From contig CM000435.1 of the NCBI GenBank assembly GCA_000165345.1, positions 1,214,459-1,278,458 on the forward strand: a stretch of DNA of 64,000 nucleotides, in the 5' to 3' direction. Both the position numbers and the translations under genes were made by a program. Shown one piece after another: positions 7,470 to 62,795 of the stretch. Below the pieces are notes generated by a model that saw only the letters and a list, made by a program, of their open reading frames with translations, was not told the origin of the DNA and did not search any database. The stretch's first letter is position 1. Each line of letters starts with the position of its first letter.

Positions 7470-9464
7470 TCATTCATTTACCTCATCACTTTGTATCATT
7501 TCTGAAACTACATGATCACTGGAAGATGATTGCTCGGAAGGCTCTGCTGCCTGACCTGAAGTAGTTTTGTCTAAAATATTAATGGTATTTGAGCTTTTTT
7601 GGCCGGCTTGAAGGAACAATTTATCATCCTGCTCACCTTGCGTTGGTGTGATCAACCTTTCGCTGTTGTCTTTTTGAAGTTCATTGAGCATTCCAACTTC
7701 ACGACTCTGAGAATCTACTTCATTCAAATCATTGATAATCTCTGATTCAACTTCAGCTCCAACTATTTGGTCATTATCATCGTTTTCTATATCTCTAATT
7801 TCCTTTTCTGCTTCTTGCTCCAACTTTTGTTCCTCTTTAATCATCTCCTCATTCCTTCTATTAATGCTATCAGAGAGCTTCTCAAATTCTTCTTTAGACG
7901 GTAGTTCAAGGCCTTCTTTTAAGCCCTGATCTTCACTATTCTCTGGATTTGCCTCAATTAAATTCACAATCTTTTCTCCACCAGCCTTATTATTTGCTTC
8001 CAATTTGTTCAGAATGCTCATTCCTCTGAACGATGGCTGATCATACATACTTTCTGCCAACTCCTCCTCCTCCTGTTCTTCCTTATTCTTGGAGATTTGT
8101 TTATTTTGAATCTTGGCCTTTTTTTTCTTAATCGCATTTCTTCTCTTCTTTCTCTTATTTTTCTGAACATCTTTTTGAATTTCTTCTACAACCTCACTCG
8201 ATTGTTCAAAATTATCTTCTTTATCATCGCCAACTTCATTATTATTTCTAATTTCTTCCCCAAGCTCTTTTGCTATTAAATCAACTTTTCCCTCTCCAAA
8301 TGAAACTGAGCTTAGCTCTTTTGAAATATCCTCGCCTTGAGCTTCTGTTGAATCGGTATCTGTATCTGTGCTTGCCTCTGTACTTGAACCTTCCGAAAAG
8401 TCAGATATTCTATTCTCAATTTCCTTTTTATCATCTGGATGAACTAAAGCAAGAACTTCCTCTGATAACTCCTTCAAATTGATATTTACCATGTGAGCAA
8501 TAGTCTTTGGTGAAACTACTCCAGAAATTGTCTTGTCCCCAATTAGCCAAGTTGGATAAGATGTGATTTTTTCTTCAACACAACTTGTCCAAGAATTTCT
8601 ATTCTGATCAAAGTTGCAGTCAAAATATGAATTATTGTCTTTAAGTACTTGAATAGCTGCTTTTCCCCACTCCAGTTCAGTTGCAATTGCTGCAGGTGAA
8701 GTACTTATTGTGTAATATTTTCCTCCAGATTCTACATACCTTTCAATAATCCTTCTATTGATTATTTCCTCTCCTTTAGTTAGTTTTCTAATATTCATAA
8801 CTTCTGAAGTTAGGTCTTTTACTTTTCCAGTAATTTGATAGTTTCTTGAATACATCATAAATATAAACACAATAGAACTTGCAACAACTATTCCAAATAA
8901 CCTGAAACTTTCTGTATAAGTACTAAGAACTCCAGGTATCCATGTTAAAATAAGAGCTAAACCAATTACAGAAGACTTGAGTAAAAATGTCACTGATCTA
9001 GTATTATATTCAAATAAGCCAATAAACAAGAAGTAGCAACTCATAATTGCAATAAAGTTAGTCATCATGAAAACTATTCTATTCCATATTCCAATGCTAT
9101 CTATCCAATTCAAAATAGAAGAAGTATAACCCTCAGCATTTTCGTATAGATTTGAGTAGGTATAATTTGAATTATAGCTTCTGTACTCTTTAAATCTTTC
9201 CCCATCTTCAAACTCTATTTCATTTTGAGCTTTCATGTACGAAAATGAAGTTGCAATTAACAATGAAATCTCAGCCAATAAAGAGTATACTGATAATGGT
9301 ATTCCACAAATCCACCAAGCCTTGCTTTCCAATAGTTGGTGGTCATATATTGACCAGTTTTTATCCATATTATTTAGATAATACAAATCTAATATACTCA
9401 AAATTATGCAAACTGACCAGCAAGCCAATAGCACTGGCATTGTAAAAGCACTAAAAACGCTCAT
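7470..9464 (-). CDS. Multi-pass membrane protein with a VKOR-like TM segment and a thioredoxin-like (YPTW) domain; acidic low-complexity C-terminus
   Basis: 664 aa from ATG 9464, with 5-6 predicted TM helices in the first ~210 aa. A VKOR-like FG(I/V)P helix motif appears as AWWICGIPLSVYSLL. A DsbA/Trx-like segment follows: YYTISTSPAAIATELEWGKAAIQVLKDNNSYFDCNFDQ...WTSCVEEKITSYPTWLIGDKTISG (YPTW is the hallmark of VKOR-fused Trx domains). The expected CxxC is CNFD here. The C-terminal half is Glu/Lys/Asp-rich. Confidence 0.45.
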   Translation of the reverse strand: MSVFSAFTMPVLLACWSVCIILSILDLYYLNNMDKNWSIYDHQLLESKAWWICGIPLSVYSLLAEISLLIATSFSYMKAQNEIEFEDGERFKEYRSYNSNYTYSNLYENAEGYTSSILNWIDSIGIWNRIVFMMTNFIAIMSCYFLFIGLFEYNTRSVTFLLKSSVIGLALILTWIPGVLSTYTESFRLFGIVVASSIVFIFMMYSRNYQITGKVKDLTSEVMNIRKLTKGEEIINRRIIERYVESGGKYYTISTSPAAIATELEWGKAAIQVLKDNNSYFDCNFDQNRNSWTSCVEEKITSYPTWLIGDKTISGVVSPKTIAHMVNINLKELSEEVLALVHPDDKKEIENRISDFSEGSSTEASTDTDTDSTEAQGEDISKELSSVSFGEGKVDLIAKELGEEIRNNNEVGDDKEDNFEQSSEVVEEIQKDVQKNKRKKRRNAIKKKKAKIQNKQISKNKEEQEEEELAESMYDQPSFRGMSILNKLEANNKAGGEKIVNLIEANPENSEDQGLKEGLELPSKEEFEKLSDSINRRNEEMIKEEQKLEQEAEKEIRDIENDDNDQIVGAEVESEIINDLNEVDSQSREVGMLNELQKDNSERLITPTQGEQDDKLFLQAGQKSSNTINILDKTTSGQAAEPSEQSSSSDHVVSEMIQSDEVNE

Positions 9465-9988: not shown

Positions 9989-11635
9989 TCAATTCCATGA
10001 TAAAGACTGATTTCCAGAATTGATGTAACTTGGAATACTTGAACAGGAAATGCTGAAAATAAAATTGTTAAACTCGTGGTTTAACTGATCAAACCTAATT
10101 TCAATACTTTTAATTTTATTGAAAGCATATTCTCTAGATTCGCTCATCAAATTTTTATTATCAATTACAGCTTCTCTAGATTTGATTCCATAGAGCTCAA
10201 CAGACTGCCTAAGCTTTTCCATTCTTTCAATAAACTGAGCATATCCAGAATTAGAAATGACAGGCTGCAAGACTGAAATTTGGTCATTGTCTGTTACAAC
10301 AAATTGATTTGCTACCTCTGATTTCTTGGCTTTTAAGCTTTGACTATGTAAAATTAAAGCACTTTCCATGTACTGAATCTCTTCTAAAAGGGACTTATAT
10401 GTAATCTCGTTTGCTGTTCCGTGTACAGTAAAGGATGCAGGTGAGGTCGCCATGAACATGTCCATAATACCAACAAGCTGGAGTTGTAATTCACTCATTT
10501 CTTGCTTAAGTAGTTGAATATCCTTATTTGTAGACTCTAAACTACTTGGCTGTGGATAAAATTCTGAATCACTATCTTCAACAAAACTCTCCTCTGTAGG
10601 TGTTTTATTTGAACCTGAATTAAAGTCCCCATTAAAATACTTTACTTTTCCATCCTGATCAATCAAAACTTTTCCTTCGAGTATTTTGTCCTTATTTTTT
10701 GTGAGAAACTCCTTTAGATAATCCTTTCTCTCCTTTAATCTATTGAGAAGGTATTTATAATCTGTAATACTACTCGAGTGTTTGACAAGTAAAGGACCAT
10801 CTAAATTGGCATCTTCGGATTCATTCAATCCTAAAATTTGGTTTTCAACTCTATCAGCATTTTTATTCTTATTAATACCTTCATCATCACCAATTAATAA
10901 TGATCTAATAGACCTGCAACCTTCTGGAAGTTCTAAATCTCTCAAAATGATGTTATTTAGCGCATAACATAAATTTTTGGAATCTTTAATTTTTTCAATT
11001 AAACTATTTGCTAAATACATATGGGAAAGAGGTTTCATATTCCACCTATCAGCATAAATAAAAAACATCATTACTGCAATATTGTTCCAATCTTCATCAA
11101 TATCATAAACGCTTTTATCTTCAACAGGTGAAAACGAAAAGATATTCCATACTTCCTTTTCTTCCTCTGCTTTATAAAACTTATCTTTATTTCTAAAAGT
11201 TGAAGGATTTACTACATCCAAGTAAACTGTTAAATTCTTCATAACTTCATATATTGAGCTAGTTTTAGTATTTAAAGTTACTAATATTATTCCGGTACCA
11301 GATGATTGAACTGCATTCAGGTCTATTTTTGCTCTTGGGAAATATCTTTCAATATCTGAGCTAACGCTAACACACCCGTCAAGTGCAGGATTGTCTGGAT
11401 TAGTTACACAGTCAATAAATTCTCCGATACTATCCATCATCCAAACATTACAACTTACATCTTCAGGAAGCTTCCAGTTATCGTAATCATCATTATTGGC
11501 TTCTTCAGGAAAAATTTGTGATCTTTCAAATCTAACAATGATAACTTCCCCTGCATATTTAGGTATTCCGAACCCTCCATGTGAACTATAATGCTTCAAT
11601 CTCCCTGTTTCATTTTCTGTGATAAGCTCTGTCAT
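9989..11635 (-). CDS. Hypothetical protein with C-terminal coiled-coil region
   Basis: 548-aa ORF with no internal stops and an E2F-like box upstream at 9903. The C-terminal third is heptad-like (LKQEMSELQLQLVG...). No family recognised by eye. Confidence 0.55.
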   Translation of the reverse strand: MTELITENETGRLKHYSSHGGFGIPKYAGEVIIVRFERSQIFPEEANNDDYDNWKLPEDVSCNVWMMDSIGEFIDCVTNPDNPALDGCVSVSSDIERYFPRAKIDLNAVQSSGTGIILVTLNTKTSSIYEVMKNLTVYLDVVNPSTFRNKDKFYKAEEEKEVWNIFSFSPVEDKSVYDIDEDWNNIAVMMFFIYADRWNMKPLSHMYLANSLIEKIKDSKNLCYALNNIILRDLELPEGCRSIRSLLIGDDEGINKNKNADRVENQILGLNESEDANLDGPLLVKHSSSITDYKYLLNRLKERKDYLKEFLTKNKDKILEGKVLIDQDGKVKYFNGDFNSGSNKTPTEESFVEDSDSEFYPQPSSLESTNKDIQLLKQEMSELQLQLVGIMDMFMATSPASFTVHGTANEITYKSLLEEIQYMESALILHSQSLKAKKSEVANQFVVTDNDQISVLQPVISNSGYAQFIERMEKLRQSVELYGIKSREAVIDNKNLMSESREYAFNKIKSIEIRFDQLNHEFNNFIFSISCSSIPSYINSGNQSLSWN

Positions 11636-27158: not shown

Positions 27159-27421
27159 AAAATGTTTTTTTTTGTGTTGTATTGATTAAAATACTTTTTG
27201 TTATATATAATAATTAAAAAAATAGAGGAGTTTAAAAACCACAACATAGATAAATTTAATAGATTTAGAGAAACAAAAGTAGCTAATCAACTCATAATTG
27301 ATGTGTCTAAGGTTGAAAACAAAGGCAAAAAATCCGCAGAATTAACACTGAAGAATTTATGACAAAAATTAATTAATTTAGGTGGGAAAAGAAAATAGTG
27401 GCAGGAGCCTTAAGATCAAAG

Positions 27422-30400
27422 ATGGATAGAGACAGATGGATTGGATTACTGAGAAATTGTAACAGATCCCTGCTTTCATTCCAAGTATATGCAAACCACC
27501 AGTATACAGAAAAGGGGAGTACCCAAGAAATAGAAAATCTGGTTCTGAAAGATATTCCTCTAGTTGTTCGTGAGAGGATTGAGAGTTATACAAAAAAAAG
27601 TATTATTCCTCAGAATATTTCTCCTGAGAGTCAAATATTTTCAGAAAAGGATGTAATTAAGACAATTTCAAATTGCTTTCAAGTAGAATCAGAAGAAGCC
27701 TGTCGAATTTTTAGAGGCTTTAACTATTTAAGAGAAGGCGGTTTCATTATAAGATTTACAAATACAGACGACCAATTTTTATCAAAAGAGATCATAAATA
27801 GAAACGGGAATGATCCTGAAGGTAAATATAGTAATGCTGGAACAAACTCTGGAGGAGTTTTGGATTGTTTTTTTTCAGATGTGGACTTAATAAGCAAAAT
27901 ATACGATTTCATATTACAAGAACAGCTTTCTCTACTAGACTCAGTGAAATTCATGTATGAAAATGCAAATTTTGAAAAGGAACATTCAGGCTATGGAGCA
28001 GTTTTAAAGAAGGTTTGTTTTGGAGAAGTCCTCTGGGGAAAAGACCAAGATCAATCAACAAAAGAAGGGATTGGAAAACATTCTTCCTCATTTAATATAC
28101 TAGATGAGCTTTGGAGATGGTATTCTAGGTTAGTTAATGACCAGTTTGTTGATTTTGACAATCCAGAATTGGAAAGAGTTTTTGGAGGTCCTCTATTACA
28201 AGCATATTCTAGACAACTACTCGAGTCTAATCTGTTACACACTATTTTGGTGGTTCTCCAAGCTCATAAAGGGTATATGGGTAGTTTAACTGGTATTCAA
28301 AAGAAACCAGAAACTGAAGTGAGCTCTAACAATAATAATAATAGAATCCCTATTGGGGAATCTCTTTCAAGGTCTTCACCTCTTAACAGATGTAGACTCA
28401 TCATTTCTGAACTCCAGTCAAAATGCTTCCTTGGTAGTCTTTATACTTTATATTCCTCCAACAGTGGAATTGGCATAGGACCACTCACGTTTTGCGATAG
28501 CAGCTTGGCTCACTCCACATCTATGATAGATCAACTCAGACAAACTGCCTCCAATGGAGTACTTTTGGCTAGCTCTCTAATACTTTCATTCTCTCCAAAA
28601 GAGATTACAATTAATAATGAAGATTTGGGCTTTTTAATCAACGTTATAGTAACTTTATTACAGTCAATATGCTCGAATGACTCAGGAGAGGTTTTGTGTG
28701 ATATCCAACAAGAAAAGTATAACTTTTCTACTCCTGCGAGAGCTAAAGCTGATACATTTAGTAGAAATGCTCAGAAACAACTATTTATAAGAGGTAACTT
28801 ACTTTTGGTTCATGCTAAGGTTGTAAAACCCTTATTACCTGCTCTAATATTCAGCTATGCCTCCATAGTTGTACAAACTCCAAATAGAGATTCACTTTTG
28901 GCTCCTATTCTTGAAGCTCCGTCATTCTTTCAATCCTCTGCATTTTCTGATTCTTTGGAAAGTATACTTCATGCTCTCAGTTCTCAACATCCTCTTAAAC
29001 AATATATTTCAGTTTCATTACTTTCAAGCTGCGGATTGGAAAACAAGACAACTCAAAACAAAACTTTAGATTTGGATGATGCTTACTTTTCAGAAGATTT
29101 TAATAGTGACAATAAGAAAAATATCATTCTGGGAGAAGCCTTTGGAACATATTACCAGCATTTGGTTCTTTATAGTATAATTAGAAATACAGTTTCAACA
29201 TTTTCACTCAACTCCTTACCTTTAGTTGCAAGAATTTCGAAACATCTAAGTTTCTTACTCAGAAAAGAGCCTAGACTGGTTTATAGAGAATGTTGGAGAG
29301 GGGACTATTTCAGACAAATTGGAGTCCATTTAATCATTGAATTATTCATGTCATCATTTCCATACGGAATTGTTGAGTTTCTTGATCTCTTAAACAGTCT
29401 TGTTCCTGACTTTAATTCAATTTCAAAATTCAATCAAGCTGACATCGATATGGCCAAGCAATCATTCAAACTTTTTATGACTTTTTTGAGAACTCCAATT
29501 AGAAATATTTCCTTTCCTCCATACCTTTCCTCTCTTGGGTTATCTCCTATTCCTGTTAATAATTGGAATCCGGATTCAATAAAAAATGATTCTGAATTCC
29601 CTGAGCTTCCTCTACATTTACAAGTATCACGCTTAGAGACACCAGATTTGGCTCTTGGAGCATCCTTTTCTCAGGCATCCTTGGCAGGAACGCTTGAAGG
29701 ATGCTTGTTGGACTTTTTAGAAATCAAACTCAACGATGTAACTCCGCTCTCTGCTGGATTTCCGAATGCAAGAAAATGTCTCACACCACTTAGAGTACTT
29801 CCTATTGGAGTTGCTCAGTCAGTTCCTTTAAAGTCGCTTTTAATCGAAAACTCAGAAACTAGTTTTTCTTCACCTCTTTGGTCAAATTCTCCCTATGGAA
29901 CTTCTTATGACTTTCCTGAAGTTGAAATGCCACCATATTACCACATTTACAATTCTAGAAGCAAGTTAGAAGAAAGCAAAAAGGTAAGAAGTTCCGATCT
30001 TCTTGATATTAATAAGCTTAGACTTCCTTCTGAACTTAATAATAACTCAACAGAAATTAGGCTTGGAGATTTGGACCCTTTCACAATAAAATTCTGTTGT
30101 AAAAATATTCAAAATCCTGATTCTTTGCCATCGCTTCTCAAAATTTTGTTGTTGATCTGGGAATCTATTGGCCTTTCATTGTCACAGTTTGGCGGAAACT
30201 TGATAAAACAACATATTGAAATGCTGGTTTCACTTAGCGAACTTATATATAGACTTGCATCATTCCACCCTTCAATTATATTTGTTCTTGATCAGGAAAT
30301 CTTCTCATGGAATGCACTAATTCCGAATGCTACCCAACAAGGATTAAAAGCTTCCACTAGATTTGGGCTTTTACCAATCAAAACTATACAAATGCTGAAG

Positions 30401-33400
30401 GGAATTTGCTATCTAATTAACAACAAGAATAATGGAGAGGAGGCTGTATCAGTTACTTTCCAAACTATTCCTAGACTCATTAATCTTCTTCAAGTATCCC
30501 TCCAACCTATTGATTTACTTTCAATCGATGACGCAGCTAATGGGAACTTTTTAAAGCTTCAAATTGGTTCTAAAGAGTTTAATAGAGAAAATAAACAAGT
30601 AAACAAGCAATCAAAGTTATTTAGCTTTCAATTCCCGTGGAGCCACCAATCTCACAATATACCAATGTACTGGCTTGTTCCTCTGTTGGTTTCATGTCTT
30701 GGTTCGAAAACTCTTGTGGATCCGGCTACACAAAGAGATTCAGGTTTTTATTCTCCAGTGCTTAAAGGAATACAGGGATTCAACTTGGATGAGCTTTTTA
30801 ACCTTGTATCAAAATCTCTAGAAATTGTCGAAAAGCAGCTGAAGTCATATCCAATTACTGCTCAAATTCTTGAATTTATTGTTACTTTACTTAACTTTTG
30901 TCCTGCTTCATTTTGGGGTCTTGGATGGGACAGACATGCAAGACTTCTGCTTTCAACTTTGGAAGAATTTAGCTATAGTTCATCTACAACAAATAAGATT
31001 ATTAGAGATATTCAGTTTCTAATTAATGACTGCATATTATGTCAACAATGCTCTGAAGAGTTGGAGCAGAGAGATTTATTTGGATTTTTTGGTAGGATCT
31101 CCAACTTCTCAATTCATACCGTTCTTTCTAGAATTTCAAGCTGGCAATTCAATTTGGAGTCAGAAAGGAACTTATTGTTTCTACGCTCACTTTCAGTGTT
31201 TGGATTACTATTAAACTCAATGGACTCTGCTACAATAATAAAATCTGACGAAGATTATGAACAACAATTAAATGAAAACATGATAAAGTCTGAAGTTAAA
31301 GATAGCAACTCTTATAGCCTAAAAGATATTGTTCCCAGTATTTCAGGAATTGCATCGTCTAATCATCGTGCTATTATAGCTACTCTTTTAAAACACATCA
31401 CTGAAACTGGCTTGATACCTTCATTACTTACAATACTGTCTTGTGAATACAGCATTCACTCCCAGTCATTTAGAAGGTCGCGGTATTCGCAGTTAGCAAA
31501 AGATGAATTGAATGATATTCCTGCTCCTTGGGAATTACTTATTTCAAACTCTGTAGTTGCCCAGGCAATGGAAAAGAATGAATCTCTTTCCTTTACTCTC
31601 GCTCTCCATCTTCAACATTCAAACTCTCAAGTTATGTTTTTAGATAAACTCCTTGTTCCTACGTTCGAATGCAGTAATACTCTTCCTAACAGAAGCGGGG
31701 AATTATTCTCTTCTCCAGATGTTATCGTTGCTCAACAGGTTGTTACTGAAGTTCTCAAGGTAATTCAAAAATTGCTCAACTCCGTTGCCGATCTTCAAAC
31801 TAGTTCAGATATGCTTTGCTCTCTAAGAACGGCTTTAGTTCAATGGATTTTATCTTCTTCATCAAATCAAGGCTCTCATATTTCAAATAGTCTGCTGAAT
31901 TCCCCAAAGTTTAGTTGGTCAGATACTGACATTATCGCAAATCATATACATTCAAGAATATCACTGCTTTATCTTTCTAAGAAGCCAGTAATGAATTTAG
32001 TAAAGTCTTTATTTTCACTCATGCTTAGCTTTGTACCTTCATCTATGGCCTCAAATACTCCAATTGTTGCAGCAAAGCTTCTCTCTTCATTCTGTTATAT
32101 ACTTTCATCAGAATCTTCCGTAAACAACTATGAGCAAAGCCAAGTACAAAACTCCAGATTGGACATAATTCTTGAGCAAATTCTAAAGCCATCTACATCT
32201 CTCGGCTCAATACAGCAAGATTTCTTACTTTCACTAACAAATACTAAACTATTTCCATTGCTGATCAAACTTCTATACCAAGAGCTTGACTTTGTACTTT
32301 TAGCCCCGATTTTCAGCTTCTTAAAGACCTTTGACTTTTCTGAAACTAAAATAAATAGCCAGGACAAAACCCCAATTGAATTTTGTAAAGTGGTTTTGGA
32401 ACTCATTAACTTATTTTCTGCATCCCATCCTTCAATGCTTATTGGATCAACTAAAAGCTTTTCTTTTGAAAGGCTAGATTATGTTTTAGCTCACTGTAAA
32501 TCTAATCTCACTATTTGCTCTGGTAATCAGATTAATGGGTCTCCTTCATCCTCTTTTAGTAGAATCGGATTAATTTGCCATGCTATAGTTGGAATCCTTG
32601 AGAAATGTAATTCACTACTAACATGTATCAACAAGGCTAATCTAGTAATCTCCTCAAATCTGCTCAATATTTTACATCTAATTCCTCTTTCATTAAGTAT
32701 ATTGAACCAACTTTTTGAAAATACAAGATCAAAGGATTTCTTGATCAGGGAAATGTTTATTAAAACAAAAGATAAAGATGGCAGTCCATCAGCCACTTCA
32801 ACATGGAATATTGTCATTTCAGTTACACAAAATCTAACTTCTCTTTGGAGTTGTCTTCAACTTGATTCCAATATCTCTCAAGCCAAGTTGCAATTGTTAA
32901 CTATAATATCTTCATCTGTTGCATGTACATATCATTTAACATCCAGGTTTATCAGTGTATCTACTCATCTGAGCTTTAAAAACTATGACAAACTTCCAGT
33001 TTTCCTAAGAGAACGAAAAATATTTGATTTTGTCAAGTACCTTGTTTCAGACAAAACTATAAATGAAATTCTTCACTCCTCCAAGAGCTCCAAGCTTATT
33101 TTTGGTTTATTCCTTAGATCCAATAGCCATTTTTCAGAAGTTGAAGATAAACTAGGAGTGCCAATTAAATATTGTGTATTCAGTAGAAAAAACTATGATT
33201 CCAGTAATGATTCAGAATTGGCTAAAACTCAAAGCTCATACACAGATAATTCCTTGGAACAATTTGTTAACAAATATTACTTTGAAAGATACCTCAAATT
33301 CTCTCATTTGATCATTTCAAATGAGACAATTAACAATCTCACAGAATTTAATATATCAAAGATTTGTGAGTTTAGAGATGAAAGTACTAAAGATTTGAGA

Positions 33401-36400
33401 TCAAGTTCCTTTGATCCCAGCAGCCAAACCTTCAAGCTTCCTCCTTCCAGCAATAGTGAAACTTCTCAGCTTGCTACACTTGAAATGGTATGGGAATCTG
33501 GACAGCTTTTAGCTCCAAAACAACACTTTTCTCCAAACAATACGAGCCTTGAAAAGAAAGAAGGGTCTTTACATGTTAGAGATGAAGAACCACTTATCAA
33601 ACACTCTGTTGTTAGTTCCAGAATTAAGGAAAGGCCAGAAAATTTATCACCTCTGCAAATATCTAGGAAGGAGGCTTCTAATTCAGGATTAAACAAAATT
33701 GTGGAAATACCTTCATTACTTTCACTAAGAAACTCTTCTTTTATTCATAAAACAAGGCAATGGGGACCCGAATTTGAACTGGATGTTTCATCGGTACTCT
33801 TACTGCTTTCATGCTCAGCTGCAGCTTGTATTTCTGTTCCTCACTCAGAAATGGATATTCTGTCCTTACTTACTTTTTCTAAAGAAATGATATTCCAAAT
33901 CCGTCGAGAAAATTCATCTAGGAGCTTTCTGGAGTCATTCATGTACCTTTTAACTAGCTATAATGAACTTATATTCTATCTAAAGACGCTACTTCCTGTA
34001 GTAATTGCAAAGTTTAGTAACCTGGTCTCAAACTCTTTCCTCTCAGAATTGGCAATACTTTTTGACTCGACAAAACTAGCCTTAATTAATCATTGTATTA
34101 GTCTAGCTCAGAAAGAAAGCCACGATTTCGAACTAGAGGGAGATGATACAAGTCCTAAAACTCCCATTCTGGATAATTTGGGGCAAAGAAAGCCTAGATT
34201 CCTTCCAAATCTAATGATGACCATTATATTTTCTACATGCACTGACCTATTGACGTTTGACCTTGTATCTAGTGTCAGACTTATTCTTGGGAGAGCAGAA
34301 ATGATTGAAACTCAAAACTCATTGAAAGCCCTTAAATCTTCCACAGAGGTGAAAAGTGGTGAAAAGAATGACTCCTACACGCTCAATCTTACCCCTATTG
34401 CTCCAAATAGCTCATCGGTTTGCTTATCTTCGTCCTGGCAAGATCTCGGTTGCCAGAATTTAAAAAATAACCAGAGATTAAATGATGAGGCTTCAGAGTT
34501 TAGAGGCTGTGTTGGAAACTTAATCAATTATATGCCTGTCTCAGAATTTTCTGAAAAAAGCCAGAGGTCCAATATCAAAAGATTGTTTTCTTCACTTATC
34601 GAGCAATGTTGTAGGTACATTATTAGAAATCTAAGGACTATGTTGCTAAACCAAGAAAAAGCAATTCCGTTCCAGATTCGAACTCAGAATAAGAACGAAA
34701 TATCTACGTATAACTTTGACTTCAAGAACATTTGGACGATCCAATCTTCCCAGACGACGAATAGTTCAGCTGAAGTCCAGGTCTCACAAGAAAATGATAT
34801 TTGTTTATCCTGTGATTTAACAGCTGCAGTTTACCTCCTCCTATTTGCTCTCAAACAGTTATCTTCACTCTCAGAAGTAGAAGATATCACGCCAATTATA
34901 GAAAGCACTACAATATCATTGTTGCTAGAGCTAACTTCATGTTCTATGCAATTTTATAAGAAAAACGGAAAGTTCATTCACAGAATTGCAAATGAAGTTG
35001 GGAATATAGATTCGAATGGTAATTTACTAAACTTTTTCTCGAGCTCTTTGATAGCTCTCCCAATCCTTTGTCTTTGCATTCCTGCAAAAATACTGGAAGT
35101 TATATATATTGAAAATAGGAAAAAGCTTCTTCAGGATATCTCATCTGAGTTTACAATGAATACTTCGAACTTAAAATCTCCGATAATAACCAGAATCAAA
35201 GAATTACTTGTTACAAACCCTCTTATGTATGACTTCAATATAGATATGGCTGTCAAGATAGTCCCATTATTAGATTCTGTAATTCAACTAAGCTCTGCCT
35301 GTCTTGAAAAAAATGAAGCTCCCAGTTATAGTTATCAACAAGCAATTATCAGAAAAGGTCGTATTGAGTCCATTGGATACTTTAAACCTCTTAAAGTACC
35401 ATTTCTAAGCTGGAGTGAGGCAGCTTACCACTCTTTACTATCATCTACAATGTCTTGCCTAGCTGCAATTTCCTCTACTCCCCAAGGATGCATGCTTATC
35501 CTCAAGAGTGGAATACTAGTACAAATAGCATCAAATTTCTTCCTTAATGGGTTCAGATTTACCAATATTTCAGCTCCTTCAAAGCAATCATATGAAAACT
35601 CTGATATTACTCCTGAAATACAATCTATTATAACCCCATCAAATTCATCTTTCTGGCCCTCAACCTATCTTATAATCGAACTTGGAGATCAAACAATTAG
35701 AAATCCTATGCATATTTTATGGTGTAGGCTAATTTCTCTTGCAACAAATATATTTGTATCACTCGAAAAATCTTCAAACGTTATTTATTCAGAAGGCGAT
35801 ACAAATTTACAAAACAAAAATCTTAATGCATCTGTCCAAGGAGGAACAGAATACAGACAGTCTATGAATACCTATGCAGGGAGAATGATGTTACGTGGAC
35901 AATCACCTCGTAGTCTTAGCACTATTTCTAGAAAGTTTGCGAATACAAAAATCGAGGGAGAGACAAATAAATATATCTCGGAGCAACATGTTAGAGATGA
36001 TTCTCAGGCAAAAGAAGAAGTATTGAAATTTATTCAGCTTTTAGAGCCAAGAATTCAACTAATTCTTTCCGAGCAAAGACAAATTTCCCAACTTGCAACT
36101 TTGGAAGAATTTAACCTGGGTATTGATTTAATCAGAGCAACTATTTCTCTGAACATCCCTGAGCTTAGGTATGAATTGACAGAAATTCTTAGAAAATCTC
36201 TTAAGACTGTTAGAGGCATATCTGTAGTGTCTCTTGGGCGTGGAATAACAGAAACCTTTGACTTATTTAAACCAACTTCAAGAATAGAGAGAATTTCAGC
36301 AGGCCAAATCCCAGAAACCTTGAATTTATACCATTTAGATAGTCTCCCTGCTCAAGTACCATCCATTTTCCACCAACGTTGCTGCACTCTTTTATTGAAT

Positions 36401-37111
36401 TCTGTTAGGAGTATTATTGATACATTTATCTCAGAAACCGGGTTCTCTCTCGAATTACGTGGATGCAGAGAACTGCTCATGCAACTGTTTCATGATACTA
36501 TGGATTTAGGTCGTCCAATACTGCAACTATTGGAAGATATACCAAACCACTGTTATTCTGTCTTTACGATTGTTAAATCCAAAGGTGGGGAATCCTTCCT
36601 ACCTCTATCTTTAAATATCCAAGCTCTAAACCCTTCAGAGCCTTCAATTGGTGATTTCCTTCCAGAATATAAAAATTCATCACTGAATAAGAACAGTGTA
36701 GAATTTAGAGGAATAGCCAGGGTCTCAGCTATTACAGAATCATGTTGCCTACCAGAAATGATCACTTTCAGCTCATTTGTACATTTGCTTAGCTCTTTGG
36801 TTGACAATATTGCAATTTGTGGAGCGAAATGCCTCTATACACTTGAAAGTTTAGAGGCTTCAGATCAACATAACGACACTATTAGAAGATTCTTAGAATT
36901 CCTTCACCTTTCTCAAGGTCTCAACTCTTCTTCACTTTTGGATTCATCAAGGAAATTAATTGAAAAGGTTTATGCAAATCTTAAATCTAAGCTTGGAGAT
37001 CAAATTAATGTGGAAGTTGTAGGTCTTGTTGGAATCAAGAAAGATCCCATTCATACACTTTTATTTGACAGACTCTCGAATACAAATAGTAATGCAAGTT
37101 CTGGGATATGA
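27422..37111 (+). CDS. Giant hypothetical protein (~3229 aa), probably alpha-helical repeat
   Basis: A single uninterrupted 9.7-kb frame. The track opens at GTG 27398 and the first ATG is 27422. An E2F-like GGCGCGCGC box lies at 27146. No catalytic motifs (P-loop, kinase, HECT, RING) seen by eye. Confidence 0.65.
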   Translation: MDRDRWIGLLRNCNRSLLSFQVYANHQYTEKGSTQEIENLVLKDIPLVVRERIESYTKKSIIPQNISPESQIFSEKDVIKTISNCFQVESEEACRIFRGFNYLREGGFIIRFTNTDDQFLSKEIINRNGNDPEGKYSNAGTNSGGVLDCFFSDVDLISKIYDFILQEQLSLLDSVKFMYENANFEKEHSGYGAVLKKVCFGEVLWGKDQDQSTKEGIGKHSSSFNILDELWRWYSRLVNDQFVDFDNPELERVFGGPLLQAYSRQLLESNLLHTILVVLQAHKGYMGSLTGIQKKPETEVSSNNNNNRIPIGESLSRSSPLNRCRLIISELQSKCFLGSLYTLYSSNSGIGIGPLTFCDSSLAHSTSMIDQLRQTASNGVLLASSLILSFSPKEITINNEDLGFLINVIVTLLQSICSNDSGEVLCDIQQEKYNFSTPARAKADTFSRNAQKQLFIRGNLLLVHAKVVKPLLPALIFSYASIVVQTPNRDSLLAPILEAPSFFQSSAFSDSLESILHALSSQHPLKQYISVSLLSSCGLENKTTQNKTLDLDDAYFSEDFNSDNKKNIILGEAFGTYYQHLVLYSIIRNTVSTFSLNSLPLVARISKHLSFLLRKEPRLVYRECWRGDYFRQIGVHLIIELFMSSFPYGIVEFLDLLNSLVPDFNSISKFNQADIDMAKQSFKLFMTFLRTPIRNISFPPYLSSLGLSPIPVNNWNPDSIKNDSEFPELPLHLQVSRLETPDLALGASFSQASLAGTLEGCLLDFLEIKLNDVTPLSAGFPNARKCLTPLRVLPIGVAQSVPLKSLLIENSETSFSSPLWSNSPYGTSYDFPEVEMPPYYHIYNSRSKLEESKKVRSSDLLDINKLRLPSELNNNSTEIRLGDLDPFTIKFCCKNIQNPDSLPSLLKILLLIWESIGLSLSQFGGNLIKQHIEMLVSLSELIYRLASFHPSIIFVLDQEIFSWNALIPNATQQGLKASTRFGLLPIKTIQMLKGICYLINNKNNGEEAVSVTFQTIPRLINLLQVSLQPIDLLSIDDAANGNFLKLQIGSKEFNRENKQVNKQSKLFSFQFPWSHQSHNIPMYWLVPLLVSCLGSKTLVDPATQRDSGFYSPVLKGIQGFNLDELFNLVSKSLEIVEKQLKSYPITAQILEFIVTLLNFCPASFWGLGWDRHARLLLSTLEEFSYSSSTTNKIIRDIQFLINDCILCQQCSEELEQRDLFGFFGRISNFSIHTVLSRISSWQFNLESERNLLFLRSLSVFGLLLNSMDSATIIKSDEDYEQQLNENMIKSEVKDSNSYSLKDIVPSISGIASSNHRAIIATLLKHITETGLIPSLLTILSCEYSIHSQSFRRSRYSQLAKDELNDIPAPWELLISNSVVAQAMEKNESLSFTLALHLQHSNSQVMFLDKLLVPTFECSNTLPNRSGELFSSPDVIVAQQVVTEVLKVIQKLLNSVADLQTSSDMLCSLRTALVQWILSSSSNQGSHISNSLLNSPKFSWSDTDIIANHIHSRISLLYLSKKPVMNLVKSLFSLMLSFVPSSMASNTPIVAAKLLSSFCYILSSESSVNNYEQSQVQNSRLDIILEQILKPSTSLGSIQQDFLLSLTNTKLFPLLIKLLYQELDFVLLAPIFSFLKTFDFSETKINSQDKTPIEFCKVVLELINLFSASHPSMLIGSTKSFSFERLDYVLAHCKSNLTICSGNQINGSPSSSFSRIGLICHAIVGILEKCNSLLTCINKANLVISSNLLNILHLIPLSLSILNQLFENTRSKDFLIREMFIKTKDKDGSPSATSTWNIVISVTQNLTSLWSCLQLDSNISQAKLQLLTIISSSVACTYHLTSRFISVSTHLSFKNYDKLPVFLRERKIFDFVKYLVSDKTINEILHSSKSSKLIFGLFLRSNSHFSEVEDKLGVPIKYCVFSRKNYDSSNDSELAKTQSSYTDNSLEQFVNKYYFERYLKFSHLIISNETINNLTEFNISKICEFRDESTKDLRSSSFDPSSQTFKLPPSSNSETSQLATLEMVWESGQLLAPKQHFSPNNTSLEKKEGSLHVRDEEPLIKHSVVSSRIKERPENLSPLQISRKEASNSGLNKIVEIPSLLSLRNSSFIHKTRQWGPEFELDVSSVLLLLSCSAAACISVPHSEMDILSLLTFSKEMIFQIRRENSSRSFLESFMYLLTSYNELIFYLKTLLPVVIAKFSNLVSNSFLSELAILFDSTKLALINHCISLAQKESHDFELEGDDTSPKTPILDNLGQRKPRFLPNLMMTIIFSTCTDLLTFDLVSSVRLILGRAEMIETQNSLKALKSSTEVKSGEKNDSYTLNLTPIAPNSSSVCLSSSWQDLGCQNLKNNQRLNDEASEFRGCVGNLINYMPVSEFSEKSQRSNIKRLFSSLIEQCCRYIIRNLRTMLLNQEKAIPFQIRTQNKNEISTYNFDFKNIWTIQSSQTTNSSAEVQVSQENDICLSCDLTAAVYLLLFALKQLSSLSEVEDITPIIESTTISLLLELTSCSMQFYKKNGKFIHRIANEVGNIDSNGNLLNFFSSSLIALPILCLCIPAKILEVIYIENRKKLLQDISSEFTMNTSNLKSPIITRIKELLVTNPLMYDFNIDMAVKIVPLLDSVIQLSSACLEKNEAPSYSYQQAIIRKGRIESIGYFKPLKVPFLSWSEAAYHSLLSSTMSCLAAISSTPQGCMLILKSGILVQIASNFFLNGFRFTNISAPSKQSYENSDITPEIQSIITPSNSSFWPSTYLIIELGDQTIRNPMHILWCRLISLATNIFVSLEKSSNVIYSEGDTNLQNKNLNASVQGGTEYRQSMNTYAGRMMLRGQSPRSLSTISRKFANTKIEGETNKYISEQHVRDDSQAKEEVLKFIQLLEPRIQLILSEQRQISQLATLEEFNLGIDLIRATISLNIPELRYELTEILRKSLKTVRGISVVSLGRGITETFDLFKPTSRIERISAGQIPETLNLYHLDSLPAQVPSIFHQRCCTLLLNSVRSIIDTFISETGFSLELRGCRELLMQLFHDTMDLGRPILQLLEDIPNHCYSVFTIVKSKGGESFLPLSLNIQALNPSEPSIGDFLPEYKNSSLNKNSVEFRGIARVSAITESCCLPEMITFSSFVHLLSSLVDNIAICGAKCLYTLESLEASDQHNDTIRRFLEFLHLSQGLNSSSLLDSSRKLIEKVYANLKSKLGDQINVEVVGLVGIKKDPIHTLLFDRLSNTNSNASSGI

Positions 37112-43206: not shown

Positions 43207-46200
43207 TTAATTTTGCATGACTTTAAGTAATGCAAAACACTTGTTAAATAAATCTTGGATTATTGGATAGGTACGAGAACTTAAATCCAAATCCTCAAAT
43301 GTTTCAGCTTCCACCTTAAGTAGCTCAAGTGAAATCATTATTGAGCTACATTGGGAATCAGAATACGTTCTTAGAGGCTTTCTCACATGTTCAACAGAAC
43401 TTACTAGTTGGCTGGGATTGAAGGATAGGAGTACCTCTAATAGAGCCAAAGATAGTACGAGGAATTCAGAACTCCTAGATATTTTGGCCTTCTCCAGAAT
43501 ACTCAAAATTTTTATTTTATCTGGAAACTCGTCAACTTTCCACTGTTTAATAAATTTCTTTTTCGATGATGAAAGAGCCAGACTTAGAAATAATTTCAAA
43601 ACTCCACATTTTATTGGTATTGGAACAGAGTCATTTAAAATAATGCTATCCAAAAGCATTCTGCCTTTTTTAGGATTAATTTTTAAATCAAAACCATCCA
43701 GTTTATTCAGTTCTTTCTTAGTTACGTTACTCATGAGGAAGCCATTCTCTTCATTAATTTCAATAGGAAAACGTAGAGCTCCTCGATTTAACCTTAAACC
43801 AACAGAGCTTTCGGTATCAAGGAGATTGATAAATAAGTCGTGAAAGCGTGCAGAACCTTGGTTTTGAGATCTTGCCAAATCTGAAAGCGGTACTGGGTTC
43901 GCTCCTTGCGTTATATTCGTCATTTGTGTCTCGGAAATTGGAATAATTTGCGAAGAACAACACAATAATAGAGAAATTATCTGCGTAATCATATAAGAAA
44001 AATGTTCAATATCTTGACTTTCGCCAGTGATTTTGCATGTATATTTCCACCAAGTTCGAATGCATGTTTCAAAACCAGAGCGATTACTTCTTTCAAGTTC
44101 TGCTTCTAGTTGCTTGGAAATGCAACTAAGGAGTGCCAAAGATTCTAAGGTAAAGTTAAGTAAAGGCTTCAACTTGTTATTAGTTAAAAGATTATGAGGA
44201 CCTTCAAATTCTGCTAAAAAGAGTCCAATAACTTTTATAAATTGGAAAAGACAACACATTTGTGAAAGAAAAGCATTTTCATTAAATTTGTTCAAGTTTT
44301 TGTTTGTCTGTTTAGCCATTGCTCTAAGAGAAGCAATTGTACAAGATCTAAGCTCTCCAAGACAAATTTCTCTGATTTCAACAAGAATTTCAGAAGTTCT
44401 CAGTAAAACATTATCCAATAGGCCATTGAGATAAAAATTCTTGTTAAATATTCTATTCCAATCTCCTAGATCTGACGTTCCACTAGATTTGACCTTGATC
44501 TTATATATAAAGGAGGCAAAATAAATAATAGGGTAGTTTAATTTACTTAAACTTTCTTCTGAATTGTTTATGAAGAGCCAAATGTTCTTTAAATCATCAG
44601 TAAACTTCCCAGGATCAAATTTATTTAGATTATTGGTTAATAGCTCCGTAAATATATCCATTGTAATTATCTGAATATAATAATCAATACAAAGTTTTAT
44701 TTCATTATAGAATTCTTTCTTTTCACTTTGTTGTGCTCGAAGCTCATTGTATAATTCTTCAGAGTGGCTCATTTGGCTTTTCGAAAAAAATGAAGTTAAA
44801 TATATAAAGTTTTCCCATATTGTAAAAATGTGGTTAAAGAGCTTTCCAATAAATTCCTCTTCCATTTCAATGGACAAGCTTGAGCTGTTGAGTATTGAAA
44901 GAGCAGATAAAAGTAAGGCCAATGATTCCTGTAACATATCAATTTGGTCCAAAGAACAATAAAGCGTCAAAAACTCTGAACTAATTGAAATTTTACTCGA
45001 TATTTCAATTCCTACTATCACTGAGTTGAATATCTCTTTTTTCAGCTCCTCACTTAAAGAGTTTGATGAATCATCAATTGAAACTATCTGGGAAAGTTTC
45101 AGTGACAATAAAGAAACTCCCATTAATAAATTATAGGTATTGTTGAAGTTTAAGCTTTGTGGCAATTCCAATGTAAGGTTATGTCCATCTTTTGACTTTG
45201 GTAGAATTTTAGACATACTCAAAAGAACTTGATTACAGAGTGAAGAGATCTTTTCTAATAGTCTTGAACAAATTTCATGATTCTTTAATCCTTTGTCAAA
45301 CAAAAACAGTAAAAATGATAAAAGCTTGTTCATCTGGTCCGAAGTCATTTCCTTGGGGGAGATCTTACTAATTAAAATGATTATGTGCTCTCTTAATACT
45401 CCAAAGCAACTTGGATCCGCTTTTACTATGCATAAAACAAGTTGTATTTGTAAAAGAAAACTATTAATACTCAGTTCTAAGTGAGAAATCCCACTTAGAG
45501 ATGAAGAAAAAAGACTTAAGTTATCAGCAATTTTTTGGAATACAAGAGATGAGAAAGGCAAGAATCTACTCAACTTGCAGAGAAACCCAAACATTAAATT
45601 GGTGAATAAAAGCCTTTCTTTTTCAATATTCGAATCTTGCATTGTTATTAGATTTAAAAAAGGAGTGATTATTTCTTCTGCAATAACTTCCATAGATTCA
45701 GTTAAAGTTGTTATTACTAGCTGAATTTCTCCATTATTTTGATCGAAATTTTCATTGGACTCGATTTCAATTGGTCTGTGTTGAATGGTCAAAAAAACTT
45801 CTAAGAACCTTAAAATACTGGCTAAATACTCAAAGAACTCCACATTTCTCCATCCAATATATGATTTAATTAAATTTTCATTTATTGGCACTAAATAGCT
45901 CATATTATTGATCAAGTGATTTAAACTCTTAATAGACCTAGAGAAAATGAACCCCCAAGATATTTGCTGATTTATTTCAATATTATCAACATTAGGAATC
46001 CGAAAGTTAGAAATTATTGAATAAGTATTATTAGAATGTTCATAATCCCATTTATCCAAGAGAACAAGCTTTAAATCCCAGATTTTTGTTTGAACTTCAA
46101 ATGAACTAGAAACCAATCCTACACCTAGGAGCCACTTAAGAAGGCTTTTTTGTATAAGTGCATTAATTGGATGGTTTGGGTTTTCAAAAACTGAGATTTT

Positions 46201-49200
46201 ATCGAAAATAGATATTACTTTCTTGACAAAATACGAATCTTGAAAACTCTGTGCGCAAAGCAGTAATTCAGGGAGCTCTCTATTACAAAACAGACTTTTG
46301 TTTAAAATAAGCAGCTTCAAACATTCTAAAGTGTACCTTGGATCTTCTTCAAACCATCTTTTTAGAGGCATCTTACTCAATAATTTGGTTACTAGAAGCA
46401 TAGTAGTAGGAGATTGAACTGTATTAATGGGGTCAATTAGCTTCGGTACTTGCAATATAATAAAGCTCCATTGAATATTAATTGGTAAAATATCAAATAA
46501 TAATTCACATAAAGCCCCATTACAAGAGTCCAAACAAAGGGAAATTGTATCAAAAATTCCAAAGCTTATCTTCGGTCTGATTGTTCCGACTATAAAATTG
46601 CCATCTTTATCTCTGAAATAGTTGTTAAAATATGATAAGATTATAACAATAAATGAAGAATATTTGGAAAGAGTTTCTGAAAGTGACTCACTATTTACGT
46701 GCTGGAAAGAATGTAGTATTGAATGAATAACTTTAAGTACTGCAAGCATTTTAATATCAATATTCCTTGATTGAGAATTAATTAAATCAGAATATCTCTC
46801 AATTTCAGAAAGATACTCAGGGTTATTCTGGCCCAACAACATTATTAATTTTGAAAGTACAGAGTCGATACTGTCCTTAATTTTTGATATTCCGCTTTCA
46901 AGACGAACAACTTGACTGGTCATTCTTGTCCAGGGAAATGAAAGCGAAAATACCGAATACAAAAATTCCTCAAGAGGTACGCCACTTGTTTTGATGGATC
47001 TTTTTCTAAAAAGTCTATCTAAATCCCATAAAACCTTTGAAATTTCTTGTGATGCATTTGTTTGAGAAACAAGAGGCTTGAACAAATTGACTTTCTTTAC
47101 GTCGTCAAATTTGAGAGGTGAGGTATGCTCACTATTTTCATGTAGTTCTACTTCATAGATTTCCTTATATTCTTTTGTTTCTCTTGTTGAAGTTGGGAGA
47201 ATTAACGTGTTTCGGACCAAGGGAGATGTTTTAAGGTATGTGGTGGTCTTATCTAAAAATAAATCATCTGGAGATTCAATACTTGGAGTATCTGAGATTA
47301 CTCCTGTTTTTAAAATTATTATCAGAATGGTTGTAAGGAGTGAAAATGAACCAGATCTACATTCTTCAGAGGAACTGAATATCCAAATACTTAGGTGGTG
47401 AATGAGCGTAATTGAGTAAGATGCAGCTAGATATTCTAGTAAATTCTTTCTATATGATCTCGAGATAAAAATTGCATTTAGAGCAATTGAAAGATGGTAG
47501 AACAGAGAATTTTCTTCAATTGAAATGAGCTCTGTAATATCAAAAGCTGACTCATCTCTTGAAGAATTGTCCAAATTCTGCTTTTTAGTACAGAAACTTT
47601 TACAGCTCAGATTCATCAAAATCTTCACAAGCTCATCTACATATATACAAAATAATTTACATGAAATTTTTGAGGAAGTTAGAGATTTAGTCAAGGACTT
47701 TAGTGCAGAAATCTTTATTTGTGTTTGAATCCTTGGGTTTTTTATTGCTGATAAAAGTTTGGAGAGTCGAAAAGAGTCTGGAGTTTTTAATACTGACGAA
47801 TTTGGCCCTTCTGTGCTCATCATTACTGATTTCTTGTGGTGAATATCTAATTCTTCCATTTTTTCTACCAACAGAGCCTCTCCATATATGTTTTGTTCAT
47901 AAGCAGTACTCATTTCATCTTTTTCGAGGTCAACCAAGGTAAAATAGTCGAAAAAAATATGCTTTGTATTCAAGCTCCACTGTCTTTCTATAAATTCAAG
48001 ATCATTTACAACTTCTAAATTTAAATCGTCTTTAGAGAATTTTACTCTTTTATTCAAGAGATCGACTAGCTGCAAAACAGAGGTTCTTCTTAAACTTCTA
48101 TTTTTAAGTATTAAAGTAAGCATAGTGGACACCATATAAAGTTCTGCAAGATTTTCTAAATCTAGATTATCCTTATTCCCACTCAGAATTAAAGAGCAAT
48201 ATAATATGCACCTTCTAATTCCTCGCAGTCTAGACTGGCAAAATTTGATATTTGACGAAGAAATCATTAATTCCGAAACTTTGGTCCATTTTGATAGGAA
48301 TAATTTTAAGCTCGAAATAATTTTGGATGAATTTGGGAGTACTTTTTTATTTTGAAAAAGTACAAAATCGAGAGTTATAACTTTGGAAATCCAAGTTAAA
48401 GGAGAATAAAAGTGAAGGCATTCATCAGACACTCTTTCAATTAAGACGTCAAAAAGAGACGCTAGATTTTTGGACCCATAGCTTTCTTGGCATAAAAGAT
48501 CGAATAAGTATCCTAATGTAATTGGTATTAAATTTTCAAATGGTGAATTCTTTAAACTAAATAAATAATCCAATAGAATACTTAAATGTTTTGATAGATT
48601 TTCTTTAGAAGCATCAGATCTTAATATATAAATTATGGATGCAACTACATGGATTGGGCTTTTAATGAATCTTTCAGTAAGCTTTTCTATATAAGAAAAT
48701 TTATATTCCATTTGGCCTTCTAAAGAGTAATTTGAATTATTTGGGTATAAAAGCGAAACAAAATCGTAGACAAATAATGTTTGGCTAATCATTGAAACCG
48801 AGTCTAGGCTCGCCAAATCATTGCCTTGGAACAATGACTCTAAGACATCCAATATAGTAAATCTGATAGAATCGCTATGCACTATTCTAAAAGAATCGAA
48901 TTCAATTATTTTTTCATTTCCAAGCAAAAAAACAATGCATGACATCAAGCTATTTGTTTCAAAGCGCTCCATGTGTTTACTCCGTTTAGTTTCAGACTCG
49001 TGTACCTTTTCTAAAGCTGATCCATGACTATTGTTGCTATTATTTGCAGAATTAAATTCTGCACTAAAGTTGTAAATATCTTCAATATTTTCTAAACTGT
49101 CCAAATCGTTAAGATCTGCAATTTTATCTGAAGATTCAACTTCTTCATTGTATTCTGCAAAAGATTCAATTTGCAAATCAAACCTTTGATTGAAAAGAAA

Positions 49201-62489: not shown

Positions 62490-62795
62490 TTGAATTTTTT
62501 TTGGATTGTTTTTTTTTGCACTTGAATTTTTTTTGCACTTGGATTTTTTTTGGATTGAGTTTTTTTGCACTTGAATTTTTTATACTTGATTTTTTTTGGA
62601 TTGAGTTTTTTTGGATTGTTTTTTTTTGCACTTGAATTTTTTTTGTACTTGGATTTTTTTTGGATTGAGTTTTTTTGCACTTGAATTTTTTATACTTGAT
62701 TTTTTTTGGATTGAGTTTTTTTGGATTGAGTTTTTTTGCACTTGAATTTTTTTTGCACTTGGATTTTTTATACTTGATTTTTTTTTTTTCATAAA
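62490..62795. repeat. T-rich ~110-120-nt tandem sub-repeats (~2.7 copies) in the spacer upstream of the 18S rRNA gene
   Basis: The motifs ttggattgagtttttttgcacttgaattttttatacttgattttttt and ttggattgtttttttttgcacttgaattttttttgcacttgg recur at 62505, 62612 and 62712. The Lys-rich minus-strand ORFs here are translation artefacts of the repeat. Confidence 0.7.

Follow-up and report, generated by a model that had tools for sequence, protein, structure and literature searches.

Results

The locus and its orthologues

The DNA analysed here, a window of 64,000 nucleotides from contig CM000435.1 (GenBank assembly GCA_000165345.1), carries on its reverse strand a single uninterrupted open reading frame (ORF) which exactly fills positions 7470..9464 and encodes a protein of 664 amino acids. 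An exact-sequence look-up showed the product, for which the initial annotation had rightly assumed Cryptosporidium as the source, to be identical to EAK90485.1 of Cryptosporidium parvum, annotated in the database as 'thioredoxin/PDI, cyanobacterial type, signal peptide plus 4 transmembrane domains'. The relationship of this protein to the VKOR-thioredoxin (VKOR-Trx) fusion proteins is the subject of the present study. The gene is situated ~1.26 Mb into the 1.36-Mb chromosome record, and the G+C content of the window is ~30-35%.

Orthologues with conserved synteny were found in seven named Cryptosporidium species besides C. parvum. The C. hominis and C. tyzzeri versions belong to the same 90% cluster as the C. 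parvum protein; the others are those of C. meleagridis (P0012), C. xiaoi (P0001), C. bovis (P0011), C. ryanae (P0002) and C. muris (P0013 or CMU_019480, named "uncharacterized", 38-39% identity). C. parvum, C. xiaoi and C. ryanae share the gene order of an unnamed ~550-590-aa gene, the VKOR-Trx-like gene, STL11, L24e and PPTA. The gene directly upstream in the window (9989-11635, reverse strand) encodes 548 amino acids and has no Pfam match on record; its syntenic counterparts of 586-587 amino acids in C. xiaoi and C. ryanae identify it as a conserved Cryptosporidium protein of unknown function.

Domain organisation of the encoded protein

A Kyte-Doolittle hydropathy scan located five transmembrane (TM) helices at residues ~8-30, 51-73, 129-150, 157-180 and 186-206, within the five to six that the initial annotation had proposed. 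TM1 (residues 8-30; 9375..9443, reverse strand, as for all features of the gene given below) coincides with a helix at residues 2-31 in the AlphaFold2 (AF2) model, where the predicted local distance difference test score (pLDDT) reaches 95. We rejected a cleaved signal peptide for this segment, since it is conserved and aligns to TM1 of VKOR; rather than the signal peptide of the database annotation, it more likely represents the first helix of the VKOR four-helix bundle. The loop helix and TM2 (residues 42-73, HQLLESKAWWICGIPLSVYSLLAEISLLIATS; 9246..9341) were delimited by hhalign, by an hmmsearch domain at residues 43-72 and by the residue comparison described below. They correspond to the 'VLxS...FGxPL' signature region of VKOR, of which L45, S47, G54, P56 and L57 are kept.

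The TM2-TM3 loop (residues 74-122; 9099..9245) falls into a gap of the cyanobacterial VKOR alignments, has a pLDDT of 48-69 and represents a Cryptosporidium-specific insert rich in Tyr, Asn and Glu, predicted to be cytosolic from its homology-based topology. TM3 (residues 123-152; 9009..9098), supported by hydropathy, alignment and AF2, contains Y144, a residue shared without exception by Cryptosporidium and the cyanobacterial family. TM4 (residues 158-181; 8922..8993) was placed in the same register by BLASTP and MAFFT and its coordinates were checked by translation. It retains S164 and G178, while the C-x-Y-C of the VKOR active site is replaced by V158-T-F-L161; in the hmmsearch alignment the family sequence 'vClyCias' stands opposite 'SVTFLLKS'. 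TM5 (residues 183-210; 8835..8918; hydropathy, BLASTP, AF2) is a linker helix through which the Trx domain follows C-terminally to the VKOR-like part, in alignments that are collinear throughout. As in bacterial and plant VKOR-Trx fusions, TM5 would set the Trx domain on the side of the membrane that holds the VKOR loops (PMC4555120, PMC3842002).

The Trx-fold domain, of the VKOR-associated subfamily, comprises residues 226-330 (8475..8789). Alignments place the position of the catalytic W-C-P-H-C at T255-S-P-A-A259 (8688..8702, checked by translation), a second, non-catalytic Cys pair at C283...C295 (8580..8618) and the cis-Pro loop S-Y-P-T-W at residues 302-306 (8547..8561). Two conserved, Cryptosporidium-specific helices (residues 331-356; 8397..8474), modelled by AF2 at 330-340 and 343-351, follow the domain. 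The remainder, residues 357-664 (7473..8396), is a fast-evolving tail defined by its composition and by a five-species alignment. It is indeed acidic, as had been stated initially, with 17.5% Glu and a net charge of -38 resulting from 78 acidic and 40 basic residues; its length is 308 amino acids and not the 280 first given. Islands preserved as far as C. muris are a K/R cluster (434-453), YDQPSFRG (474-481; YDQPxxRG) and IENDDNDQ (559-566; IEN..DQ).

The thioredoxin domain belongs with VKOR-fused thioredoxins

The first match of the Trx domain in the PDB was 3kp8_A, the isolated Trx-like domain of Synechococcus VKOR (phmmer E=0.004, profile search E=0.003), and the next were the full-length Synechococcus VKOR chains 3kp9, 4nv2 and 4nv6. 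A profile built exclusively from Cryptosporidium sequences (residues 1-352) was then run with HMMER in an exhaustive search of 1.84 billion representative proteins at E≤1e-3. It returned only six proteins, three of them from Cryptosporidium and three Trx-domain proteins carrying YGAYWCPHC...Y-x-E-C...C...YPTW (best P0014, E=1.3e-6); no relative from gregarines or other apicomplexans was among these matches. A mixed profile of the Cryptosporidium sequences and the three CPHC-type Trx domains led to 186 proteins, the best 120 of which almost all contain the VKOR domain (PF07884), are 290-340 amino acids long and are cyanobacterial where named.

For residue comparisons we used an alignment of 110 sequences, consisting of 106 cyanobacterial VKOR-Trx proteins and those of C. 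parvum, C. xiaoi, C. ryanae and C. muris. The segment ...WTSCVEEKITSYPTWLIGDKTISG, which includes the cis-Pro loop Y303-P304-x-W306, had been noted initially for its YPTW and downstream Gly as characteristic of VKOR-fused Trx domains, and none of the 110 sequences varies at P304, W306 or G315. On the basis of these sequence comparisons the Trx domain is significantly related to the subfamily fused to cyanobacterial VKOR.

Three metagenomic proteins encountered in this context (P0016-P0018, 453-491 aa) consist of four tandem VKOR-type Trx domains and contain no VKOR domain. Some of the repeats in P0016 have lost one or both CxxC cysteines (YWDPHTF, YWCRFTQ), so degeneration of VKOR-type Trx domains is not unique to Cryptosporidium.

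Relationship of the membrane domain to VKOR

BLASTP with residues 1-352 against three of the 186 mixed-profile proteins gave a single collinear alignment with P0046 (E=1e-12, 25% identity, query residues 43-327), and equally collinear ones with P0022 (E=4e-10) and P0100 (E=2e-10), the span running from the loop helix and TM2 through TM5 into the Trx domain. Because the Trx part dominates the full-length scores, the TM part was also scored alone. Profile-profile alignment by hhalign of six Cryptosporidium TM regions with 106 cyanobacterial ones gave a score of 31.9 (P=4.3e-4), with residues 42-157 aligned. Reversal of the template or of the query lowered the score to 18.4 and 17.0, respectively; shuffling of 8-column blocks gave 16.1±3.5 and 20-column blocks each reversed internally 14.0±2.3, with 0 of 200 decoys reaching 31.9 in either case. 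Forward shuffles of 20-column blocks yielded 27.2±3.5 and 29 of 200 decoys reached 31.9. We discarded them as a null, as 26 of the 27 high-scoring decoys had kept segment 41-72 on the loop helix and TM2 of VKOR. These comparisons indicate that the TM-only profile-profile signal is real.

AWWICGIPLSVYSLL, already likened initially to the FG(I/V)P motif of VKOR, aligns to the family 'FG(L/I)PL' with G54, P56 and L57 kept. S47 does not vary within Cryptosporidium and is matched with a Ser conserved to 98% in the family, namely the conserved loop Ser/Thr before FG(I/L)P, which is a VKOR family criterion of Goodstadt & Ponting 2004 (as cited in PMC4555120).

AF2 modelling with the 110-sequence alignment resulted in a pLDDT of 83.5 and a predicted template modelling score (pTM) of 0.61. 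Values exceeded 90 over most of the TM helices and the Trx domain and were low only in 74-122; a helix at 42-46 and a short strand pair precede TM2. Submitted to Foldseek for comparison with the PDB, this model returned Synechococcus VKOR chains as the top five hits (E=2e-8 to 7.5e-7 over ~330 columns), with fish and human VKOR further down (probability 0.77-0.99). A four-helix bundle with a loop or cap helix between TM1 and TM2 was thus recovered by hydropathy, by the alignment-driven AF2 model and by Foldseek.

Several results weigh against this assignment. Pfam hmmscan of the full protein and of TM-only segments gave no VKOR match even at E≤10, and a TM-only HMMER profile run against the PDB had as its sole match a compositional one, to a G protein-coupled receptor (angiotensin receptor), with no VKOR. 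An hmmsearch with a hidden Markov model (HMM) of the cyanobacterial VKOR TM region scored the Cryptosporidium TM regions weakly, at 4-7 bits (empirical p of 9/1000 for C. parvum, 10/1000 for C. ryanae and 30/1000 for C. muris). The TM-only signal resides mostly in ~30 residues (LLESKAWWICGIPLSVYSLLAEISL), with TM3-TM4 collinear. AF2 run with the three sequences of a Cryptosporidium-only multiple sequence alignment gave an uninformative pLDDT of 40.7, and the alignment behind the confident model was 96% cyanobacterial VKOR-Trx, so that a VKOR-like fold was partly built in. We therefore take the AF2 and Foldseek results as supporting rather than independent proof.

In an alternative reading, only the Trx domain is of the cyanobacterial VKOR-associated type and the membrane domain is unrelated, its likeness coming from TM composition and a short chance motif; the unmatched PF07884, the receptor match, the low HMM scores and the alignment-driven AF2 model all favour it. 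Against it stand the TM-only hhalign score, which lies 4.5-7.8 standard deviations above the two motif-destroying nulls and was reached by 0 of 400 decoys, and the HMM alignments, which always fell into the same register in the three species. In addition, L45, S47, G54, P56 and L57 are found exactly at the boundary of loop helix and TM2, the number and order of the helices match, the domain is fused to the matching Trx subfamily, and BLASTP is collinear through TM2-TM5. An unrelated membrane domain is consequently improbable, even if it is the alternative that fares best.

Loss of the redox cysteines

Eight cysteines are invariant in the 106 cyanobacterial VKOR-Trx proteins. Six of them have been replaced throughout the four Cryptosporidium species of the alignment, among them C. 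muris, which represents the deepest split in the genus. In the VKOR loop, the first Cys is replaced by W37 and the second is lost in a deletion (4/4 Cryptosporidium, Cys in 106/106 cyanobacterial proteins). The TM4 pair, likewise Cys in 106/106, is V158/L161 in C. parvum, L/L in C. xiaoi and C. ryanae and S/T in C. muris. The Trx C-P-H-C pair has become S256/A259, or S/T in C. muris, the WCPHC equivalent reading TSPAA in C. parvum, SSPAA in C. xiaoi and C. ryanae and GSPST in C. muris. Only the second Trx pair, C283/C295, is kept in all Cryptosporidium as it is in 106/106 cyanobacterial proteins. Other family residues are retained, namely L45, S47, G54, P56, L57, W120, Y144, S164, G178, Y251 and G267.

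The initial annotation had placed FDCNFDQ where VKOR-fused Trx domains have WCxHC. That the catalytic cysteines are replaced holds, as does the absence from the TM domain of a CxxC and of the loop Cys pair, seen in all four species; the site itself was misplaced, since WCPHC falls on T255-S-P-A-A259 whether the aligned relatives are free-standing Trx domains or VKOR-fused ones. FDCNFD is not the CxxC equivalent and instead contains C283, with which the retained second pair begins. PDB alignments agree, with FDC283...SC295 on the Synechococcus "VEC...QEC", i.e. the second Cys pair and not the active site.

The cysteines of the 664-aa protein are those at positions 15, 19, 53, 143, 283 and 295 only, and they form no CxxC or CxxS anywhere in the protein. 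C53 and C143 are not conserved, C53 being the family Phe in C. ryanae and C. muris. Cys19, in TM1 (codon 9408-9410), is invariant in 5/5 aligned Cryptosporidium sequences, whereas 89/106 cyanobacterial VKOR-Trx proteins have Ala there; this lone Cys in the membrane is specific to the lineage. C283 and C295 probably form a structural disulfide, which would fit an oxidising compartment.

Taken together, neither the catalytic hallmarks of VKOR (loop Cys pair, TM4 CxxC) nor those of Trx/PDI (WCPHC, any CxxC or CxxS) are present. As every relay Cys is absent, the disulfide chemistry of the family is ruled out, and, the CxxC being missing, quinone reduction coupled to thiol oxidation is predicted to be absent as well. 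The protein might nevertheless still be a thiol-disulfide oxidoreductase, as the name 'thioredoxin/PDI' suggests, by using C283/C295 or Cys19 in a non-canonical manner. In its favour, no Cryptosporidium species deviates at C283, C295 or C19, and the Trx fold is kept together with its cis-Pro loop. We nonetheless consider such an activity very improbable. There is no CxxC in the protein, the nucleophilic and resolving Cys of the Trx domain being Ser/Ala or Ser/Thr, and the lone membrane Cys19 cannot form a relay. All four VKOR cysteines, which are required for the function of Arabidopsis LTO1 in planta (PMC4400859), are absent. Furthermore, C283/C295 is an accessory pair in cyanobacteria, because the catalytic CxxC is present beside it in 106/106 proteins.

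Selection on the cysteine-less domains

The ratio of non-synonymous to synonymous substitutions (dN/dS) was determined according to Nei-Gojobori for C. xiaoi versus C. ryanae, the only unsaturated pair (dS ~0.8-1.3). It was 0.15 for both the TM helices and the TM2-TM3 insert, 0.04 for the Trx domain, 0.04 for the post-Trx helices (331-356) and 0.42 for the tail. The low values imply that the Cys-less domains are functional and not decaying. A decaying pseudogene or low-complexity annotation artefact, as might be suspected from the lost catalytic residues, the long low-complexity tail and the missing Pfam match, is effectively refuted by the domain dN/dS of 0.04-0.15 at dS ~0.8-1.0 and by the ORF being intact and syntenic in C. 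parvum and the seven further species named above, and its probability is negligible.

Other features of the window

A 951-aa ORF on the reverse strand (58116-60971) has a Thr-rich N-terminus with TTTTTR repeats, and ~22 tandem copies of the 14-aa unit PETGSSSNHPSVT(I/V), encoded by a 42-nt repeat at 58411-59346 (Tandem Repeats Finder score 1228); it looks like the gene of a mucin-like secreted glycoprotein. There are two very long ORFs, one of 3237 amino acids at 27398-37111 on the forward strand and one of 2323 amino acids at 43207-50178 on the reverse strand. AT-rich intergenic DNA (G+C 0.23, GC skew +0.48) at 62494-62785 and 63728-63815 contains T-tract repeats of period 15, 49 and 110 and an (AT)n run. 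The 64-kb window as a whole yielded no tRNA gene.

Discussion

We consider it probable that the gene product is a catalytically dead descendant of a cyanobacterial or plastid-type VKOR-thioredoxin fusion. With the catalytic hallmarks lost and the folds kept, we describe it as a redox-dead VKOR-Trx (LTO1-like) pseudoenzyme, genus-wide in Cryptosporidium. The initial annotation, though uncertain of the fold, had raised this idea of a pseudo-VKOR that is redox-dead and joined to a Trx-like domain. It is supported by the Trx and TM homology and by the absence of the six redox cysteines in four species; the alignment-driven structure prediction gave a fold match, and the YPTW similarity extends beyond a single species.

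The VKOR-Trx family, to which Synechococcus VKOR and plant LTO1 belong, joins a DsbB-like quinone reductase, the VKOR domain, to a DsbA-like Trx domain, with redox motifs that face the periplasm or the thylakoid lumen (PMC3842002). The ancestral enzyme passes electrons from substrate thiols to the Trx CxxC, from there to the VKOR loop Cys pair, on to the TM4 CxxC, and finally to quinone. With its relay cysteines all replaced, the Cryptosporidium protein can form no disulfides by the family mechanism. Strong purifying selection has kept the five-helix scaffold, the loop helix and 'GIPL' cap with the conserved Ser, and the Trx fold with its cis-Pro loop and probable structural disulfide C283-C295. 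The insert in the predicted cytosolic loop, the two conserved post-Trx helices and the long acidic tail are additions specific to Cryptosporidium. From homology-based topology, TM1 would act as a signal-anchor and bundle helix, with the N-terminus and the 74-122 insert in the cytosol. Loop 1, the turn between TM3 and TM4, the Trx domain and the tail would lie on the lumenal or exoplasmic side, the last two thus facing the lumen of the endoplasmic reticulum (ER) or secretory pathway, or the cell exterior.

What such a protein does is a more tentative matter. That it acts as a non-catalytic binding or scaffold module is something we infer, at a likelihood that falls slightly short of even, and this conjectural step is a weakness of our interpretation, as is the fact that literature searches gave nothing specific on the localisation, topology or expression of the Cryptosporidium gene. 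In such a module a partner polypeptide would be bound in the cis-Pro groove, and the tail would provide an effector or interaction region specific to the lineage. The helix bundle might also retain some capacity to bind lipid or quinone. Redox-inactive members of the Trx-fold superfamily, such as the b and b' domains of PDI and ERp29, have the fold but no CxxC and serve in binding rather than catalysis. They are functional analogues by description only, being soluble ER proteins unrelated to the VKOR-fused subfamily.

The closest known counterparts of the pseudoenzyme are Synechococcus VKOR-Trx (PDB 3kp9, 3kp8, 4nv2, 4nv5, 4nv6) and its cyanobacterial kin, which likewise have five TM helices followed by Trx, the 'LxS...G(I/L)PL' loop-helix motif, equivalents of Y144, S164 and G178, the cis-Pro 'YPTW...G' and the second Cys pair (Y-x-E/D-C ... 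C). The Cryptosporidium protein differs from them in that the six relay cysteines are missing, identity is only 19-25%, the Pfam VKOR model does not recognise it, and it has the ~50-aa TM2-TM3 insert, the post-Trx helices and the 308-aa acidic tail. In eukaryotes, the plant and algal LTO1 (AtVKOR, Lumen Thiol Oxidoreductase 1), which we liken to it by description, is a plastid-derived VKOR-Trx with lumenal redox domains (PMC3842002) and is placed in VKOR clade 5, the 'photosynthetic' one, whose members carry C-terminal Trx domains (PMC4555120). It differs in requiring its four VKOR cysteines (PMC4400859) and in acting on thylakoid lumen substrates. The phylogeny of the VKOR family, which did not include apicomplexan sequences, took the four cysteines as universal (PMC4555120).

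The existing annotation of EAK90485.1 is correct with respect to the cyanobacterial-type Trx fold and the multi-pass membrane region, but misses the VKOR domain, counts TM1 as a signal peptide and implies a PDI-type redox activity that the missing CxxC excludes. While the cyanobacterial type of the Trx had thus already been seen by the genome annotators, we found no mention of the VKOR domain, of the reinterpretation of the "signal peptide" or of the complete loss of the relay.

LTO1 is the kind of gene to be expected in a plastid-bearing ancestor of Cryptosporidium, which itself has no plastid (PMC3516247). A Chromera VKOR has been put forward as a case of endosymbiotic transfer from red algae (PMC3516247) and Toxoplasma has an annotated VKOR (PMC3616887). 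Together they make a plastid route, by endosymbiotic gene transfer (EGT), plausible for the Cryptosporidium gene as well; direct horizontal gene transfer (HGT) would be the other possible route. Literature searches on an apicoplast VKOR gave nothing specific, Maruyama et al. make no mention of the gene described here, and EAK90485.1 is not included in the table of transferred C. parvum genes of Huang et al. (PMC545779). The fuller scenario, in which a thylakoid or LTO1-type VKOR-Trx arrived by EGT, survived the loss of the plastid, lost its redox cysteines and was re-used as a secretory or surface receptor or scaffold with an acidic tail, is conceivable, yet we regard it as rather unlikely in its entirety.

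For the annotation of these genomes, the consequence is that the name "thioredoxin/PDI" has been propagated through Cryptosporidium together with an implied redox activity unsupported by the sequence, which would mislead counts of redox or disulfide-forming enzymes or of drug targets in this pathogen. For the family, our interpretation, if true, would add the first VKOR pseudoenzyme that we have found described, one in which a six-Cys relay spread over two fused domains is erased while both folds remain strongly constrained. With its several membrane passes, a domain that is probably exoplasmic and an acidic tail that evolves fast, this conserved protein is moreover a plausible secretory-pathway or surface candidate in a parasite with few characterised membrane proteins. 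As its nearest relatives are cyanobacterial or of the photosynthetic clade, the gene, if a plastid leftover, would be a new entry on the very short list of cyanobacterial- or algal-derived genes in plastid-less Cryptosporidium, and a plastid origin, should phylogeny support it, would provide new evidence on the plastid history of the lineage.

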